DNA from: a virus
Taxonomy: Duplodnaviria; Heunggongvirae; Uroviricota; Caudoviricetes
DNA length: 9,898 nucleotides
Virus record (IMG/VR): IMGVR_UViG_2698536372_000014
Direction: 5' to 3' (one strand)
Numbering within the stretch: position 1 is the first letter of the stretch; each line of letters starts with the position of its first letter. This document shows positions 2,405 through 9,898 of the stretch, piece after piece. The position numbers and the translations under genes were made by a program. The notes beneath the pieces are model-generated. The model worked only from the letters and a program-made list of their open reading frames with translations, had not been told where the DNA came from and searched no databases.

Positions 2405-2560
2405 TTACTCCTCAGGTTCGTAAGCTGTGAAGACAGCGACCTCCGTCTGGCCGGTTCGGATTCGTACCTCGCAGAGGTCTTTCCTCGTTACCAGTGCCGT
2501 CACTATGACGGTTAAACAGATGACGATCAGGGCGATTAACATCGCCTTTTGCTGCTTCAT
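2405..2560 (-). CDS. hokD: Hok-family type I toxin (51 aa small membrane peptide)
   Basis: Translation MKQQKAMLIALIVICLTVIVTALVTRKDLCEVRIRTGQTEVAVFTAYEPEE matches the Hok/Gef family and, from memory, HokD/RelF closely: single transmembrane helix and the conserved RKDLCEV.IRTGQTEVAVF motif. Confidence 0.85.
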   Translation of the reverse strand: MKQQKAMLIALIVICLTVIVTALVTRKDLCEVRIRTGQTEVAVFTAYEPEE

Positions 2561-2617
2561 AGCCTGCTTCTCCTTGACCTTTCGGTCCGTAAGAGGCAAT
2601 CTATATGTGACGAGCAT
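2405..2617 (-). CDS. Mok-like in-frame N-terminal extension of hok (70-aa frame)
   Basis: The ORF extends hok upstream in the same frame (MLVTYRLPLTDRKVKEKQA-MKQQ...), resembling MokC as I recall it; GTGAGG lies about 8 nt upstream of ATG 2617. Confidence 0.5.
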   Translation of the reverse strand: MLVTYRLPLTDRKVKEKQAMKQQKAMLIALIVICLTVIVTALVTRKDLCEVRIRTGQTEVAVFTAYEPEE

Positions 2618-2660
2618 ATAGGGGCCTCACTTCGATTTATAGTCGGGTGGGGCTTTTATC
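2605..2660 (+). ncRNA. Putative Sok-like antisense RNA covering the mok translation-initiation region (boundaries approximate)
   Basis: Hok loci are normally controlled by an antisense RNA across the mok SD/start. The plus strand here has a possible -35 TTGACC at 2574-2579 and a hairpin (CCUCAC...GUGGGG) followed by CUUUUAUCU at about 2625-2660. Inferred from locus architecture; ends not determinable by eye. Confidence 0.3.
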
Positions 2661-2752
2661 TATCTGCCGTTGGTGTTCATGCCCGAGGCAGATAGCCTCA
2701 AGCACCCGCAGCAATCCTACTTAACTCTGCCGTTACAGCAAACCGTTTTCGC

Positions 2753-2895: not shown

Positions 2896-3654
2896 TCAAG
2901 TGCCTTTCCTGGTCCAGCCATATTTTTTGAATGCAGGCGCCGCTTCATCGGTTTGTAGCCATTCTGCAAATCGACGGGTTTCATCATTTGCATCCTGACG
3001 TACTGTAATGTTCATATCACGCCATATCACGTAGTCTGGCGCTATTTCCACGACATCACCAATTTCTGGATTACTGGCTGCCCAGTCAGCCCAGGTTATC
3101 CAGACATCTGCTCCAGGCTGATTCTCAAGAGCCTTACGTGCAGTTCCGCTATTGGGCGCATATAAAATAATATTTTTTCGGATTGCGGCGACAGTTTCTA
3201 TATTCCCTTTACGTCCGGCAATATCTTCCCAGACGCCAGTGCCTGATGTATTACTGGTACCACCACCATCATTAACAATTACGCCAATCCCAGGTCTGGT
3301 CAGGTCGTCAATACTCCGGATATTTTTAGGATTACCTTTCTTTACCAGTAAAATACTTTTTCGCAGATAAAGAGGCTGAATATCTTTTTCACTGAAGCTG
3401 TCTTTATGGTCCCGAATGATAGCCAGAGCAGATTGTTCTGATGCGCCAAACAAGATATCTGCATTTTTTTTGGCATCTTCATTCCATTTGTTCTGTGGGC
3501 CGTAATGAACGTTCACTATAATACCTGTTTTTTCGGCATAAAGTTTGGCTGCATCAAGCAAGGCTGTATGCGGGCCACCAGGACCATACAGATTGATATC
3601 AGCATAAGCAGCAGAAGACAGGAATATTAAAAAACCTGCCATTATGTTCCTCAT
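2896..3654 (-). CDS. Periplasmic substrate-binding protein, ModA/AcfC-like, with signal peptide; orphan (no permease or ATPase partner in window)
   Basis: 252-aa ORF with ATG at 3654 and AAGGAG 7 nt upstream. N-terminal signal peptide MRNIMAGFLIFLSSAAYA; the C-terminal AFKKYGW resembles the ModA-type ending. AT-rich codon usage and an AT-rich upstream region (3655-3900) suggest foreign origin. Confidence 0.7.
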   Translation of the reverse strand: MRNIMAGFLIFLSSAAYADINLYGPGGPHTALLDAAKLYAEKTGIIVNVHYGPQNKWNEDAKKNADILFGASEQSALAIIRDHKDSFSEKDIQPLYLRKSILLVKKGNPKNIRSIDDLTRPGIGVIVNDGGGTSNTSGTGVWEDIAGRKGNIETVAAIRKNIILYAPNSGTARKALENQPGADVWITWADWAASNPEIGDVVEIAPDYVIWRDMNITVRQDANDETRRFAEWLQTDEAAPAFKKYGWTRKGT

Positions 3655-3818
3655 AAAAAACTCCTTTTATTGGTTATCATGAAATAAAGTTATAAACACT
3701 ACAAATAATATATATTACATCCAGATAAACTTATCCGACTTTACCTCGTGCATAGCTTGTTATTTAAAGTCAACAAAATAAGGAAAATTATACGCATATT
3801 GAAGAGTATAAACCTTAC

Positions 3819-3846
3819 ATGTTGATTACATTTTTGTAATCAACAT
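3819..3846. promoter_or_regulatory. Inverted repeat ATGTTGATTAC-N6-GTAATCAACAT in the AT-rich region upstream of the SBP gene
   Basis: 11-bp perfect arms with a 6-bp AT spacer, about 170 bp upstream of the SBP start; candidate operator. Function is inferred. Confidence 0.3.
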
Positions 3847-3905
3847 CCTGTTTGGAATAGCCAGCCTTTAATGGATAACTATTTCTGACAATGCAATGAG
3901 TATAA

Positions 3906-4598
3906 TCAAGTCCATCTTCCACTGAGAATTAGAGGCGGCATGCTTTTTCCGGCTCTTGCCGGATATCCGTAATTGTCCATAATCTGCAGATTTATACCTT
4001 CTGCATGACCTGTCAGCGAAAATTTGTCCGGTGTTTCTACGGGAATGACATCAAAAGTTACACGCACTCGCGTTACCGTGTAGACCTACTTTCCTGCACT
4101 TGCAAGATCACAGTGGTGTAACCGTAACAGGAATTTATTCTCTGGACCGGCAGTAAATCCCTGAGTGGCGTGGTTCCCATATCAATTTCCCGCCAGGCAG
4201 CCTCCATTGCCAGCGTACAGGCTGGAGCCATGACCTGCCCTTTAAATCTGGCCCGACCATCCCACCGGACGTGTTCTTCTCCCCTGAACTTAGGTACAGT
4301 CATCTCCAGTGGCACAAAAGTGTCAGCGCCATAATTTTTGACCGTTATCGCGCTACGGATATTTTGTTGACTGGTGAAAATCACCCCGCAGAATCAGGCT
4401 TATTCCCTTAACCTGGGCTTTCATCCTGACCGCCGCCTCACTACGACCAATCAGACTGCCGATGCATTTTACCTTCATTGTTAGTATCATGATTTCAGGC
4501 CTGCACCATCCGCTCATTGCCCGGACTTCCGACAAATCCCGGCAACCATATCCCGGTGCTTGTTCAGCTCCCGCAGCGCGGCGCAGACTCGCTCCCAC
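3906..4598 (-). pseudogene. Degraded gene remnant(s): three adjacent minus-strand ORF fragments in alternating frames
   Basis: Fragments at 4598-4353 (only the part below 4514 is free of the upstream gene), 4384-4073 (103 aa, GTG start) and 4085-3906 (about 50 aa, FSLTGHAEGINLQIMDNYGYPARAG..., no usable start). None has a convincing start/SD. Identity unknown; only a weak, uncertain resemblance to a MOSC-like beta-barrel fold. Confidence 0.3.
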
Positions 4599-4659
4599 TT
4601 CTGGACATGATTCTTCGCCCTACGCAGTTCGCGATTTGCCATATGCAGCGATGGCAAAA

Positions 4660-5247
4660 TCAAATCATCTTCTCGCGTTGCAGTAAACGATGGCAGCGAC
4701 TGCACAATGTCCGCCACAGTTTCTGTTTTAATATCTTCCTGTGTTGCATCTTTCTGTACCGGTAACGAACACCGGCTGGCTGAGGAAAGGCTTTACCATC
4801 GGTTTCCGCTACCGATTCAACTTTCGGCTCTGCTGGTAAATTATCACCTGGTATGCAGTAACGAATTTTACCGTTCTGGTTTACGCGAATCAGACGACCT
4901 TTGCTGATTGCCATTGCCAGCGTTGAAGCAACTTTGCGGGATGTTGTACCGAACAGCGTAGCCAGTTCATCCGCCGTTTGTGGTCCGCGTTGTTCAATCG
5001 TCGCGGTTAAATCGCACTCTGAGATTTTCGCTTCTGTTGCCGTGGTGGTTTCTTCTGGCGCTGGCTGTTCCTGCTGAACGTTGTTATCAGCCACACGCCA
5101 GGTGTATACGCTTTTATCAACGAAGCCAGCCTTTTTCAGTTCCCACAGCTCGTTCAGTACTTCTTCACGACTGATATCAAGTCGCGCAGCCAGCTCTACC
5201 GACGTGGCTTTTCCCATCGCTTTCAGTGCGTCAAAAACAGTCTCCAT
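4660..5247 (-). CDS. Phage early-region protein with N-terminal winged-helix-like domain (DUF1627-like, tentative); appears frameshifted near 4765-4795
   Basis: The 195-aa ORF starts [43 protein letters not shown], but its last ~40 residues are unnatural ([18 protein letters not shown]...). A different frame is open from 4792 to 4514 with a natural-looking sequence ([37 protein letters not shown]...). A single frameshift would join them into one protein of about 245 aa ending at 4514. Confidence 0.55.
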
Positions 5248-7585: not shown

Positions 7586-7993
7586 ATGAAAAACGAAACC
7601 TTCGGTGCTCGCCTCTTATACAGGCGAAAAAAATTAAAACTGTCTCAGGCCGCATTAGGTAAGCTGGTCAAAGTGGCTCACGTAACAATTTCTCAATGGG
7701 AAAGAGATGAAACACAGCCAGCGGGGAAGAGATTATTCGCACTGAGCCAGGCGCTTCAGTGCTCGCCGACTTGGCTTCTTTTTGGAGATGAAGATAAGCA
7801 ACCAGGCGAACCGATCCCAGATAATCAGCCAGTCAATCTGACAGAAGATCAAAAAGAGTTGCTTCAACTGTTCGACGCACTGCCTGAGTCAGAGCAAAAG
7901 GCTCTGTTGTCAGAGATGCGTGCTCGAGTTGAGAATTTCAACAAACTTTTTGAAGAACTACTCAAAGCTCGCAAAAGAAGCGCAAATAAATAA
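7586..7993 (+). CDS. dicA: XRE-family HTH repressor DicA (cI functional analogue)
   Basis: 135 aa; the HTH region (LSQAALGKLVKVAHVTISQWERDETQP) and the strongly conserved FALSQALQCSPTWLLFGDEDKQP plus the C-terminal ALPESEQ...EMRARVENFNKLFEELLKAR match DicA as I recall it. Confidence 0.85.
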   Translation: MKNETFGARLLYRRKKLKLSQAALGKLVKVAHVTISQWERDETQPAGKRLFALSQALQCSPTWLLFGDEDKQPGEPIPDNQPVNLTEDQKELLQLFDALPESEQKALLSEMRARVENFNKLFEELLKARKRSANK

Positions 7994-8200: not shown

Positions 8201-8557
8201 GTGGGCGAAGTCAAACATCAGAATGGAAGGCGTCCAGGGATCAGCAAAGAAACAGCGATGGCGCTTTATATTGATATCAGCGCCATTGCCGGACAGGTAA
8301 GAGTTATCAGAGCGGTAACTAAGCGGTATGCGCCTTTACTTCAGAAAGTCTCTGGTGAGTGCACCGAAGATATTGTCAACGATTTCGTCATCGAACTGCG
8401 AGGACTCATCTTCAGTTACAAGGTGACCACAATTTTTGCAGATGGCTCCCGCGAAACTGTCAGAGCCCTGCGGCTTAAAGGATGTGTCAAAGACTTAGCC
8501 ACCACATTCTGGGCAAGAAAACTTGATTGTATTCATAACCAATTTCCTCTCGAGTAA
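8201..8557 (+). CDS. Hypothetical protein, first ORF of the DicA-controlled operon (118 aa from GTG 8201; alternative ATG at 8258)
   Basis: Open frame with AGAGGA about 6 nt upstream of GTG 8201, immediately downstream of the predicted promoter; no recognisable family. Confidence 0.45.
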   Translation: MGEVKHQNGRRPGISKETAMALYIDISAIAGQVRVIRAVTKRYAPLLQKVSGECTEDIVNDFVIELRGLIFSYKVTTIFADGSRETVRALRLKGCVKDLATTFWARKLDCIHNQFPLE

Positions 8558-8629
8558 CAGACCCCTCAGAGGATACCACCTCGCCTGACGTGGTTAAAAA
8601 GCAGGCAACGCTAACCACAAGGAGCCGAC

Positions 8630-8848
8630 ATGCAGAAACGAGACCCCGTCATCATCGCGCCAGACTATACCGATGATGAACTTTATGAGTGGATGCACCA
8701 GAAAATTAAGGCGGTGCAGGACCTGAAATGGGCCAATGAAGCCAGGGCTAAGCAGGCTGAAAATCTGTCCGCTCTGGAGCAGGATATCACCAATCTGGAA
8801 AAAGCAGCGGCATTAAGCATTGCCAGAATGATTACATACCCACGTTAA
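8630..8848 (+). CDS. Hypothetical small protein (72 aa), YdfC-like by size and position
   Basis: ATG 8630 with strong AAGGAG 5 nt upstream; same length as K-12 YdfC, which sits upstream of dicF in Qin. Sequence identity to YdfC is not verified. Confidence 0.6.
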   Translation: MQKRDPVIIAPDYTDDELYEWMHQKIKAVQDLKWANEARAKQAENLSALEQDITNLEKAAALSIARMITYPR

Positions 8849-8870
8849 TAGCTAACCAACGAGGCTAATA

Positions 8871-9278
8871 ATGGAATTTAAAGATTTACCAACGCCATTA
8901 CAGGAAATGGCATCGAATATAGTTCGTTCACAACTGGCTACTCTTGACCTTAGTACCGCAGAAAAAGAAACCATCGATAATATGGTTCGTAATGTGCGCA
9001 ATGCTTTTTCTGGGCTATATGGTTCTGATAATCAAAAGCAGGAAAGCGATGTTAATAAACGGGTAATTTCTGTTTGCGTGAATGGCCATGTTCTTTCATC
9101 AATCAAAACAGAAACGGCGACAGTCTTCGATTGCCTTTGCATTGTACAGAGCCTTGTTGATGCCCTGTTTCGTTCAGTGAATTTAGAAAATGATGCAAAT
9201 CTGCGAGGGCGCATAATAGCACATCCATATGCACATACTTTAGGCTCTGTGGATATCAAAGATCCCACAAATCTTTAA
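8871..9278 (+). CDS. Hypothetical protein (135 aa) in the AT-rich cargo segment
   Basis: ATG 8871 with GAGG 6 nt upstream; AT-rich codon usage distinct from flanking genes; a long ORF despite AT-richness argues it is real. No recognisable family. Confidence 0.55.
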   Translation: MEFKDLPTPLQEMASNIVRSQLATLDLSTAEKETIDNMVRNVRNAFSGLYGSDNQKQESDVNKRVISVCVNGHVLSSIKTETATVFDCLCIVQSLVDALFRSVNLENDANLRGRIIAHPYAHTLGSVDIKDPTNL

Positions 9279-9489
9279 TGAAATAGTTAACGCGAATTGT
9301 ACTTGCTCTTTCGGTTGCTTTCAGAATACGCGTTGAAACTGCTGGCGGTAATTTGGTATTCCATTTATTAAAATCATGCCCGGGAAAGTACTCTTCGAAA
9401 ATACTTTTAACTGCAGACTCGCCTATTGAAATGCTGCTTACCATGCGATTTTGATAAAGGCATTTAGCAATAAGAGTTGATTTTAACAT
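9256..9489 (-). CDS. Hypothetical small protein (77 aa), convergent with and overlapping the 3' end of the 135-aa gene
   Basis: ATG 9489 preceded by a near-consensus AGGAGGG 4-5 nt upstream; AT-rich; antisense to the DicF precursor transcript. No recognisable family. Confidence 0.5.
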   Translation of the reverse strand: MLKSTLIAKCLYQNRMVSSISIGESAVKSIFEEYFPGHDFNKWNTKLPPAVSTRILKATERASTIRVNYFIKDLWDL

Positions 9490-9822
9490 TCACCCTCCTG
9501 AGGGTTGGTAATTAAGGAGTTCTCCACGGGTGAAGTGGAGTGCGTGCGCCGGACACGGGTGAACATCCGGCACTGACAGTTTACTGAAAGGATATTTCTC
9601 TGAAAAGTCAGACCATAACGCGAAAGCGCACGGCGAGGTAGCTGGTTCATAGATAGCCTGTCGTTAAATTTTCGTCGACCGTGCGCTTCCGGTTGTGGCA
9701 ATCCGCGAAATGGCGCGGCGGTAAGTATGGAGGGGTTATTCCTTCCCCGTTGAGGACACCGGGTTGTCAGGTTGACCATACGCTTAAGTGACAACCCCGC
9801 TGCAACGCCCTCTGTTATCAAT
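9490..9822. other. GC-rich, highly structured non-coding segment between the cargo genes and DicF
   Basis: No convincing ORF on either strand (the minus ORF 9483-9821 has a TTG start and arginine-rich junk composition). Multiple stems: GCCGGA/TCCGGC (9548-9570), AGCGCACGG/CCGTGCGCT (9625-9687), CCGCG/CGCGG (9702-9717), GGGTTGTCA/TGACAACCC (9761-9797), plus a CGC-GAAA-GCG tetraloop hairpin. Confidence 0.35.
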
Positions 9823-9875
9823 TTTCTGGTGACGTTTGGCGGTATCAGTTTTACTCCGTGACTGCTCTGCCGCCC
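9823..9875 (+). ncRNA. dicF: DicF small regulatory RNA (antisense inhibitor of ftsZ translation) with its 3' terminator
   Basis: TTTCTGGTGACGTTTGGCGGTATCAGTTTTACTCCGTGACTGCTCTGCCGCCC followed by TTTTT matches the 53-nt DicF sequence as I recall it, including the terminal GC stem and U-tract. Confidence 0.8.
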
Positions 9876-9898
9876 TTTTTAAAGTGAATTTTGTGATG

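Follow-up and report, generated by a model that had tools for sequence, protein, structure and literature searches.

The window, i.e., the whole stretch of 9,898 nucleotides that was analysed, belongs to a lambdoid prophage of the DicA/Qin type and is 100% identical to the prophage located beside ompW in the bovine E. coli strain E2865. An earlier note, made from the letters of this stretch, had described two convergent ORFs with overlapping 3' ends between a YdfC-like ORF and DicF; when we recomputed the ORFs from the window, their coordinates, sizes and strands and the 23-nt 3' overlap were as it had described them. We refer to the plus-strand gene as A and to the minus-strand gene as B. The features of this region are:

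7586-7993, plus strand: DicA-like repressor
8258-8557, plus strand: 99-aa ORF (phrog_21318, E 8.6e-67)
8630-8848, plus strand: ydfC homolog, 72 aa (annotated as ydfC in the identical E2865 record; phrog_1744, E 9e-39)
8869-9501: AT-rich segment of 633 bp with gene A, gene B and the ribosome-binding site of B (bounds from alignment/BLASTN against ET12567)
8871-9278, plus strand: gene A, 135 aa, ATG start
8871-9035, plus strand: N-terminal domain of A, ~55 aa, a predicted helical hairpin
9039-9278, plus strand: A domain (residues 57-135), homologous to stand-alone early-left proteins of 77-80 aa
9256-9278, both strands: 23-nt overlap of the 3' ends of A and B, TCAAAGATCCCACAAATCTTTAA
9256-9489, minus strand: gene B, 77 aa, ATG start
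9490-9501, minus strand: ribosome-binding platform of the minus-strand gene, CAGGAGGGTGAA ahead of the ATG
9502-9823, plus strand: DicF precursor leader (~320 nt), common to K-12 (97.7% identity)
9824-9875, plus strand: DicF sRNA (Rfam RF00039, full length, 76.7 bits, E 5.6e-16)

The ribosome-binding sites reported earlier for both genes were found as well, GAGG for A (8861-8864, 6 nt ahead of its start codon) and AGGAGGGTGA for B (the reverse complement of 9490-9499, immediately before its start codon). The DicF score lies above the gathering threshold of the RF00039 covariance model (48 bits), and B, which lies inside the early operon, is indeed antisense to the transcript that gives DicF, as had been claimed for the minus-strand gene; further downstream in the full record are dicB, a DUF1482 gene, an exonuclease gene, xis and int. 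The ydfC homolog is 95% identical to that of K-12 and belongs to the conserved left flank of a variable site. The 99-aa ORF stands where K-12 has ydfA/ydfB, and in a metagenomic phage locus (L104, 4962-5513) that has no B its homolog forms an in-frame fusion with the C-terminal end of an A-domain protein. In the DicF leader, two neighbouring hairpins on the plus strand at 9520-9570 (CTCCAC..GTGGAG and GCCGGA..TCCGGC) have the identical loop ACGGGTGAA, and TTCACCCGTG is a minus-strand direct repeat within the same interval; the segment between these repeats has been lost in E. coli loci L143 and L151, and K-12 also has the region. Elsewhere in the window are a hokD/sok type I toxin-antitoxin locus (2405-2707, minus strand; Rfam sok, 103.9 bits at 2558-2707), whose hokD is annotated in the E2865 record, and the virulence cargo paa, encoding an AcfC-family adhesin (2896-3654, minus strand). 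The most AT-rich DNA of the window (~3450-4050, GC 0.30-0.37) adjoins paa and itself borders on a frameshifted fimbrial pseudogene.

Our searches upheld the earlier description of both genes as uncharacterised. Neither A nor B had a hit at or near threshold in Pfam, NCBIfam or PADLOC or a sequence match in the PDB, Pfam scans of all 29 and 48 family members gave nothing consistent, and for none of A, B, YdfC and the neighbouring 99-aa protein did PADLOC-DB v2.0.0 return a family at E-values up to 1. The models of A and B matched no known or solved fold, and neither protein is mentioned in any paper of the library that was searched; a comparative survey of the dicBF locus leaves its non-conserved genes unnamed (PMC5069750). 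Both proteins do, however, match PHROGs of unknown function: A matches phrog_1363 (E 4.8e-47 over residues 1-130 of 135) and B matches phrog_10348 (E 1.1e-47 over all of its 77 residues). Based on these matches, on homologs in other genera and on dN/dS values below 1, we conclude that A and B are real genes under purifying selection rather than chance ORFs; the median pairwise dN/dS was 0.48 for the A domain and 0.27 for B, values that are rough as dS is near saturation.

The 135-aa product of A has a composite structure. Homologs sharing its N-terminal domain were limited to Escherichia and Salmonella, and these were conserved over residues 1-52 and divergent thereafter; further PHROG matches of A were confined to residues 1-63, with a separate match to phrog_23433 on residues 55-128. 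Residues 57-135 are 35-44% identical to partners of B in Serratia, Klebsiella and Dickeya (BlastP E-values of 1e-14 to 1e-19), and stand-alone proteins of 77-80 aa consisting of this A domain occur in prophages of Serratia, Klebsiella, Dickeya, Hafnia, Citrobacter, Enterobacter, Leclercia and Yersinia; a profile search with the A domain retrieved 76 proteins. The AlphaFold model of A (mean pLDDT 67) agrees with a two-domain protein, with helices at residues 8-23 and 32-50, a low-confidence linker at 49-60 and then a beta hairpin plus helices. Judged by these homologies, the 135-aa protein is a fusion and not a single domain. In Citrobacter (P0180 and P0209-P0211) a ClpX-type C4 zinc finger (PF06689) lies in frame ahead of the A domain; this would be either another type of N-terminal fusion or an overextended start, and we did not retain it as informative, as it may only reflect an upstream in-frame start.

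B belongs to a much tighter family, with its length fixed at 77 aa and identities of 55-72%. Homologs were found in Klebsiella, Raoultella, Serratia, Dickeya, Xenorhabdus, Yersinia, Morganella and Salmonella, and also in Proteus, Photorhabdus, Hafnia and Citrobacter, so that B occurs in lambdoid prophages of at least 10 enterobacterial genera besides Escherichia; an exhaustive profile search gave 163 cluster representatives, nearly all stand-alone proteins of 74-80 aa. The protein is soluble and its model (pLDDT 96) consists of five helices. B showed neither of the features expected of SieB-type proteins, with no Pfam SieB match and no hydrophobic or membrane segment (highest 19-residue Kyte-Doolittle mean, 0.59). 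A distant homolog (43% identity) lies on a Psychrosphaera chromosome (L020, 4989-5228) with no detectable A and no obvious phage neighbours, a short unrelated ORF occupying the partner position; apart from truncated or frameshifted copies, this was the sole B found without an A partner.

The two genes are inherited together, and B faced an A-domain gene in each informative locus outside Escherichia. Among 180 fetched loci, which include many redundant copies from E. coli, a convergent A-domain partner was present for 165 of 171 B hits; five of the six unpaired hits were truncated or frameshifted and had no convergent ORF, and the sixth was that of Psychrosphaera. The overlap of the paired genes was 23 nt in 155 cases, 26 nt in six and 51-53 nt in the four most diverged, and the 23-nt sequence of the window contains an inverted repeat (AAAGAT/ATCTTT), with both proteins terminating in IKDxxxL. 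B was present as well in Hafnia and Citrobacter loci that we reached through A and that a word-based search had missed. For 38 distinct pairs the identity matrices of the A domain and B were strongly correlated (r 0.89, Mantel p 5e-4) with no discordant pair, while A diverges faster than B (mean identity 50% vs. 68%). We therefore have high confidence in the anatomy and evolutionary coupling of the pair as read from these comparisons; A and B are probably a functional pair inherited as a unit, and their spread marks them as an old, widely conserved module of enterobacterial lambdoid prophages. Decay of the module is one-sided: A or the A domain is intact and B is lost, replaced or frameshifted in loci L013-16, L124, L104, L105 and L100/L136/L148. 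The A201 variant (the 201-aa protein described below) keeps the A domain in the absence of B, and the A domain is thus not strictly dependent on B; likewise, A11 is present without B91 in locus L011.

In complete E. coli genomes the pair is patchily distributed, with B found in 650 and the A domain in 652 of 5426 genomes. The carriers are mostly STEC of serotypes O157:H7 (including strain 86-24), O26, O103, O111, O121 and O145, and the pair is also found in PPompW prophages. Most E. coli copies (611/650) are at least 99% identical; however, a diverged E. coli lineage also has an intact pair, with 92% DNA identity and 70% identity of the A protein. As the pair is present in only about 650 of the 5426 genomes, it is not core to Qin-like prophages, and its GC content differs from that of its flanks; the objection that the two ORFs might be conserved core genes with the composition of their neighbours thus does not apply. 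Alignment with the K-12 derivative ET12567, the kind of comparison with a Qin-type prophage that the earlier note had proposed, showed that 8869-9501 is missing from the K-12 Qin prophage as a single clean 633-bp indel with flanks 95-98% identical and junctions that contain no repeats. This segment corresponds to the AT-rich stretch previously put at ~640 bp and has a GC content of 0.390 vs. 0.480 in the left and 0.516 in the right flank; the ydfC-dicF gap of K-12 is about 340 nt, close to the ~300 bp given in that note. What stands is a variable, AT-rich two-gene unit within a DicA-type early operon, having the moron-like traits of a base composition unlike that of its neighbours and of presence or absence among related prophages. 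The claim that it is acquired cargo is only partly apt: the module is old and widely conserved, its site is a cassette hotspot of which K-12 shows the empty state, and the junctions are compatible with loss of the unit by K-12 as well as with its gain by other prophages. We also considered that a retained B promoter element would show K-12 to be a deletion, and rejected this, as a profile of the element from outside E. coli had no match upstream of B in E. coli or in K-12.

At least five alternative cassettes, each composed of a variable C-terminus and a convergent small gene, share the left flank of this site. Besides the A/B pair of the window, we list six further states between ydfC and dicF:

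empty state, as in K-12 (L002)
124-aa protein alone (L011)
106-aa truncation of the 124-aa protein with an unrelated convergent 91-aa gene, 23-nt overlap (L010, 2041-2063)
201-aa protein with an unrelated convergent 63-aa gene, 23-nt overlap (L013-16, with the overlap of L013 at 4584-4606; also in Salmonella)
133-aa type with minus-strand ORFs of 27 and 64 aa (L185/186; L186 2862-2902)
208-aa type abutting a minus-strand 69-aa gene (L187, 3127/3128)

The 201-aa protein corresponds to the A of the window up to about residue 130, to which a 66-aa extension is added, and overall the N-terminal domain of A is joined to at least five unrelated C-termini at this site. Where ydfC exists, the homology on the left covers ydfC and the N-terminal domain; in the 133-aa type, which has no ydfC match, it starts at the start of A. 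On the right, four cassette types become homologous again precisely where the start codon of the minus-strand gene lies (window position 9489), such that the CAGGAGGGTGAA platform is common to four unrelated minus-strand cargo genes. Based on where the left and right homologies end, we infer that the exchanged unit is the variable plus-strand C-terminus together with the convergent small gene, and such units have the look that would be expected of cognate pairs. No known defence gene was seen among the cargoes at the site. The 23-nt overlap recurs in two unrelated cassettes whose minus-strand genes (91 and 63 aa) are not homologs of B; we had considered B63 and B91 as remote relatives of B and discarded this (hmmsearch E-values of 0.2-0.7).

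Gene A belongs to the early-left operon, whose promoter is pL or, in phages of the Qin type, PdicB. In other genera the A-domain gene is usually the first after the repressor and OL-pL region. The clearest case is a Klebsiella locus (L006), in which OR contains the CI operator ACAG-N7-CTGT, a further occurrence of it lies in the stretch from the 3' end of cI to A, and cI has its own terminator. As operators directly precede A and cI is separately terminated, A evidently heads the pL transcript here, in the place occupied by N in lambda, and, as it directly follows the OL operators, it is repressed in the lysogen and made at once upon induction or infection. Elsewhere A appears from gene order to be first after the repressor: the order repressor, A and convergent B was found in Hafnia, Citrobacter, Dickeya and most Serratia loci. 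In 19 diverse loci outside E. coli an invariant TGnTAnnnT (an extended -10 motif) lies ~30 nt upstream of the B start codon, preceded by an inverted repeat that can form a hairpin and shows a compensatory change (GCCTG/CAGGC vs. GCCGGG/CCCGGC); outside E. coli, B is thus very likely transcribed from a promoter of its own that opposes the pL transcript. In E. coli a minus-strand promoter of B would have to lie in the DicF leader (9502-9823), and an nhmmer profile of the conserved element found no copy upstream of B; nor did the minus strand of 9490-9898 contain a sigma-70 match of 9/12 or better, and no terminator was found. As the conserved element is missing and no good sigma-70 match is present, expression of B in this window is uncertain. 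Downstream of the pair, the Klebsiella locus has a full-length DicF-like match (L006 5874-5922, minus strand; 29.9 bits, E 2.7e-4, below threshold) together with a terminator-like hairpin ~80 nt past the start of B, in the same order of A, antisense B and DicF as in E. coli. We considered whether an A/B pair followed by a DicF-like RNA was a general arrangement and rejected this, as 13 loci (including L006) had no match at the gathering score and DicF was not found at E-values up to 0.1 in L003, L009, L181, L183, L017 and L113. In a Hafnia prophage (L181) a tRNA match (4644-4724, plus strand; 45.6 bits) lies just past B in the early-left operon.

Taken together, these comparisons describe a convergent gene pair that is conserved, a fusion of domains in A, and a hotspot whose cassettes share an expression platform; the unit is best seen as a prophage accessory or hotspot cassette that possibly provides defence with self-immunity. 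We tentatively propose, at less than even confidence, that B is an exclusion or abortive-infection effector made by the lysogen and that A is its cognate early neutraliser. B would be made in the lysogen, would be harmless alone to the host and would interfere with phage development, while A, as a specific neutraliser of B, would allow the escape of the induced prophage or of an infecting phage that has the same cassette. The convergent overlap would bring about reciprocal expression, as strong pL transcription would run antisense through B, with B produced during lysogeny and A as soon as lytic growth begins, and exchange of whole cassettes at ydfC-dicF would generate specificity groups among E. 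coli prophages. We assign the roles in this way because decay is one-sided, because A evolves faster and is less ordered, and because the C-terminus of A co-varies with the minus-strand gene. Antidotes often evolve faster and are less ordered, and an intact A in the absence of B is the pattern expected of orphan antidotes, the independent events here being few; one-sided decay could instead reflect A being harmless because it is repressed, and that neither protein matches a known defence, toxin, antitoxin or immunity family speaks against the effector/neutraliser reading, as do the missing promoter element of B in E. coli and the partners' net charges, which do not co-vary. Prophage defence located next to the repressor and with cognate self-immunity has been shown experimentally in BTP1 (BstA/aba; PMC8585504), antisense-encoded exclusion has precedents in sas/sieB and STnc6030 (PMC7067206), and the dicB operon is reported to have a phage-protective role (PMC6832061). 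A bolder form of the proposal, which we regard as somewhat unlikely, is that ydfC-dicF and the first pL position host an unrecognised class of two-protein effector/neutraliser cassettes and that B is a new small anti-phage effector fold; cassettes of this class would be exchanged whole between the shared N-terminal domain and the shared ribosome-binding platform, and their exchange would create exclusion and self-immunity specificity groups among co-resident STEC prophages.

The polarity of the pair could also be reversed, which we think unlikely, with A being a toxic or host-takeover early protein like Kil, DicB or YdfD and B a constitutive antidote that would protect the lysogen from leaky pL/PdicB expression or stabilise the prophage. 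Polymorphic toxins likewise combine a conserved N-terminus with a variable C-terminus that co-varies with an adjacent small immunity gene, and it suits this polarity that A appears to be repressor-controlled and B to have its own promoter in other genera, that B is compact, helical and of the size of known immunity proteins, and that neighbouring products of the operon are known to be toxic (PMC5069750). However, it is B that is lost, replaced or frameshifted with A intact in several lineages, the reverse not having been seen; stand-alone A is only 77-80 aa and matches no toxin family, and its faster evolution and lower fold confidence suit an antidote better. We find it improbable that the role of the pair is mainly regulatory and exerted at the RNA level, with transcription of B interfering in antisense with both the early-left operon and the DicF precursor, in the manner of oop on cII and of STnc6030 on BTP1, and with the B protein secondary, or that A and B are themselves lysis-lysogeny regulators. 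That B is wholly antisense to the DicF-yielding operon transcript, that the convergent overlap is conserved and that a promoter-like element with a covarying hairpin precedes B elsewhere, with extra copies before other minus-strand ORFs, would all fit, and precedents are published (PMC7067206). Selection on B as a protein argues otherwise (77 aa fixed, dN/dS 0.27, pLDDT 96 and 163 remote relatives of the same size), as does the like selection on A; antisense control needs no strict co-variation of two proteins, and neither model has a recognisable DNA-binding fold. Similarly doubtful to us is that A and B ride along inertly in this E. coli window as a recombination product with B unexpressed, which linkage alone has kept in recently spread STEC prophages. 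The B promoter element is missing in E. coli with no sigma-70 match in its stead, frameshifted B variants exist, and with 611/650 E. coli copies at least 99% identical there was little time for decay; however, the strong AGGAGG is kept and is common to the four minus-strand cargo genes, suggesting a maintained expression platform, and the diverged E. coli lineage (92% DNA and 70% A protein identity) has kept the pair intact. The weight left over from these readings falls to something that we have not thought of.

The pair proposed here, with B as effector and A as neutraliser, can be set beside several known systems. BstA/aba of the Salmonella prophage BTP1 (PMC8585504) resembles it in being an accessory function beside the repressor that is expressed in the lysogen and has variant-specific self-immunity, with escape of the induced prophage; however, that system combines a large protein of two domains (BstA) with a DNA element of 63 bp in the same locus (aba), whereas A and B are two small proteins on opposite strands with no sequence or fold similarity to that system, the likeness being one of proposed logic. 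The sieB/esc/sas system of P22 and lambda, as cited in PMC7067206, likewise combines an early-left exclusion gene expressed from the prophage with an early escape factor and an antisense RNA. SieB is a membrane protein, unlike B. Esc is an internal translation product of sieB, whereas A is a separate convergent gene. Type II toxin-antitoxin systems also consist of small, co-occurring and co-evolving proteins of which one evolves faster and is less ordered, and the E. coli A has an antitoxin-like layout of a conserved N-terminal module and a partner-specific C-terminal one. Strict co-occurrence and co-inheritance, as expected of type II systems, were found (165/171; r 0.89); however, their co-directional operon was not, the genes being convergent with a 3' overlap here and convergent in other genera, and no toxin or antitoxin family was matched. 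We had also considered the acidic A (pI 5.3) and basic B (pI 9.5) to be a toxin-antitoxin-like signature, which held in E. coli but not in general; among 16 representative pairs the net charges of the partners were uncorrelated (rho -0.09). In pore-forming colicin operons, which the layout would resemble if the polarity were reversed, the immunity gene is on the opposite strand, downstream of the SOS-repressed toxin gene, and there is a likeness in that a repressor-controlled gene with a variable C-terminus is followed by a small opposite-strand gene with a promoter of its own; unlike colicins, A and B are much smaller proteins that lack translocation and receptor domains; no lysis gene accompanies them, and their place is in a phage operon. 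Finally, like morons and the P2/P4-type hotspots (PMC9122126), the site has AT-rich DNA that is present or absent in near-identical prophages, conserved flanks and several cargoes, but here the cargo is swapped together with the C-terminal part of a resident gene and the minus-strand genes share a ribosome-binding platform.

The pair is carried by about one in eight complete E. coli genomes, mostly of Shiga-toxin producers, and the operon that contains it gives rise to DicF and DicB, which both influence phage resistance and the physiology of EHEC. Should A and B serve for defence and self-immunity, they would represent a new small-protein system and a clear example of specificity among competing prophages being set by cassette exchange, a matter relevant to how Stx phages are induced and spread; otherwise, a gene that runs antisense to the precursor of DicF might still change how much DicF pathogens make in comparison with K-12. 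In addition, the promoter-like hairpin element found before antisense genes is a separate lead for phage regulation. It resembles a portable antisense promoter or regulatory element belonging to early-left operons. The window itself has one copy on the minus strand at 8570-8607, between the 99-aa ORF and ydfC, consisting of a hairpin (TGCCTG...CAGGC) and then the extended -10-like GGTGGTATCCT (nhmmer 27.9 bits, E 3.6e-8). This copy is followed on the minus strand by a 13-codon remnant (MNTIKFSCPECGG, ending in a stop) that matches the start of a 66-aa CxxC...CxxC protein of locus L104, and L104 and L119 have two copies of the element each, every copy lying ahead of a minus-strand ORF.
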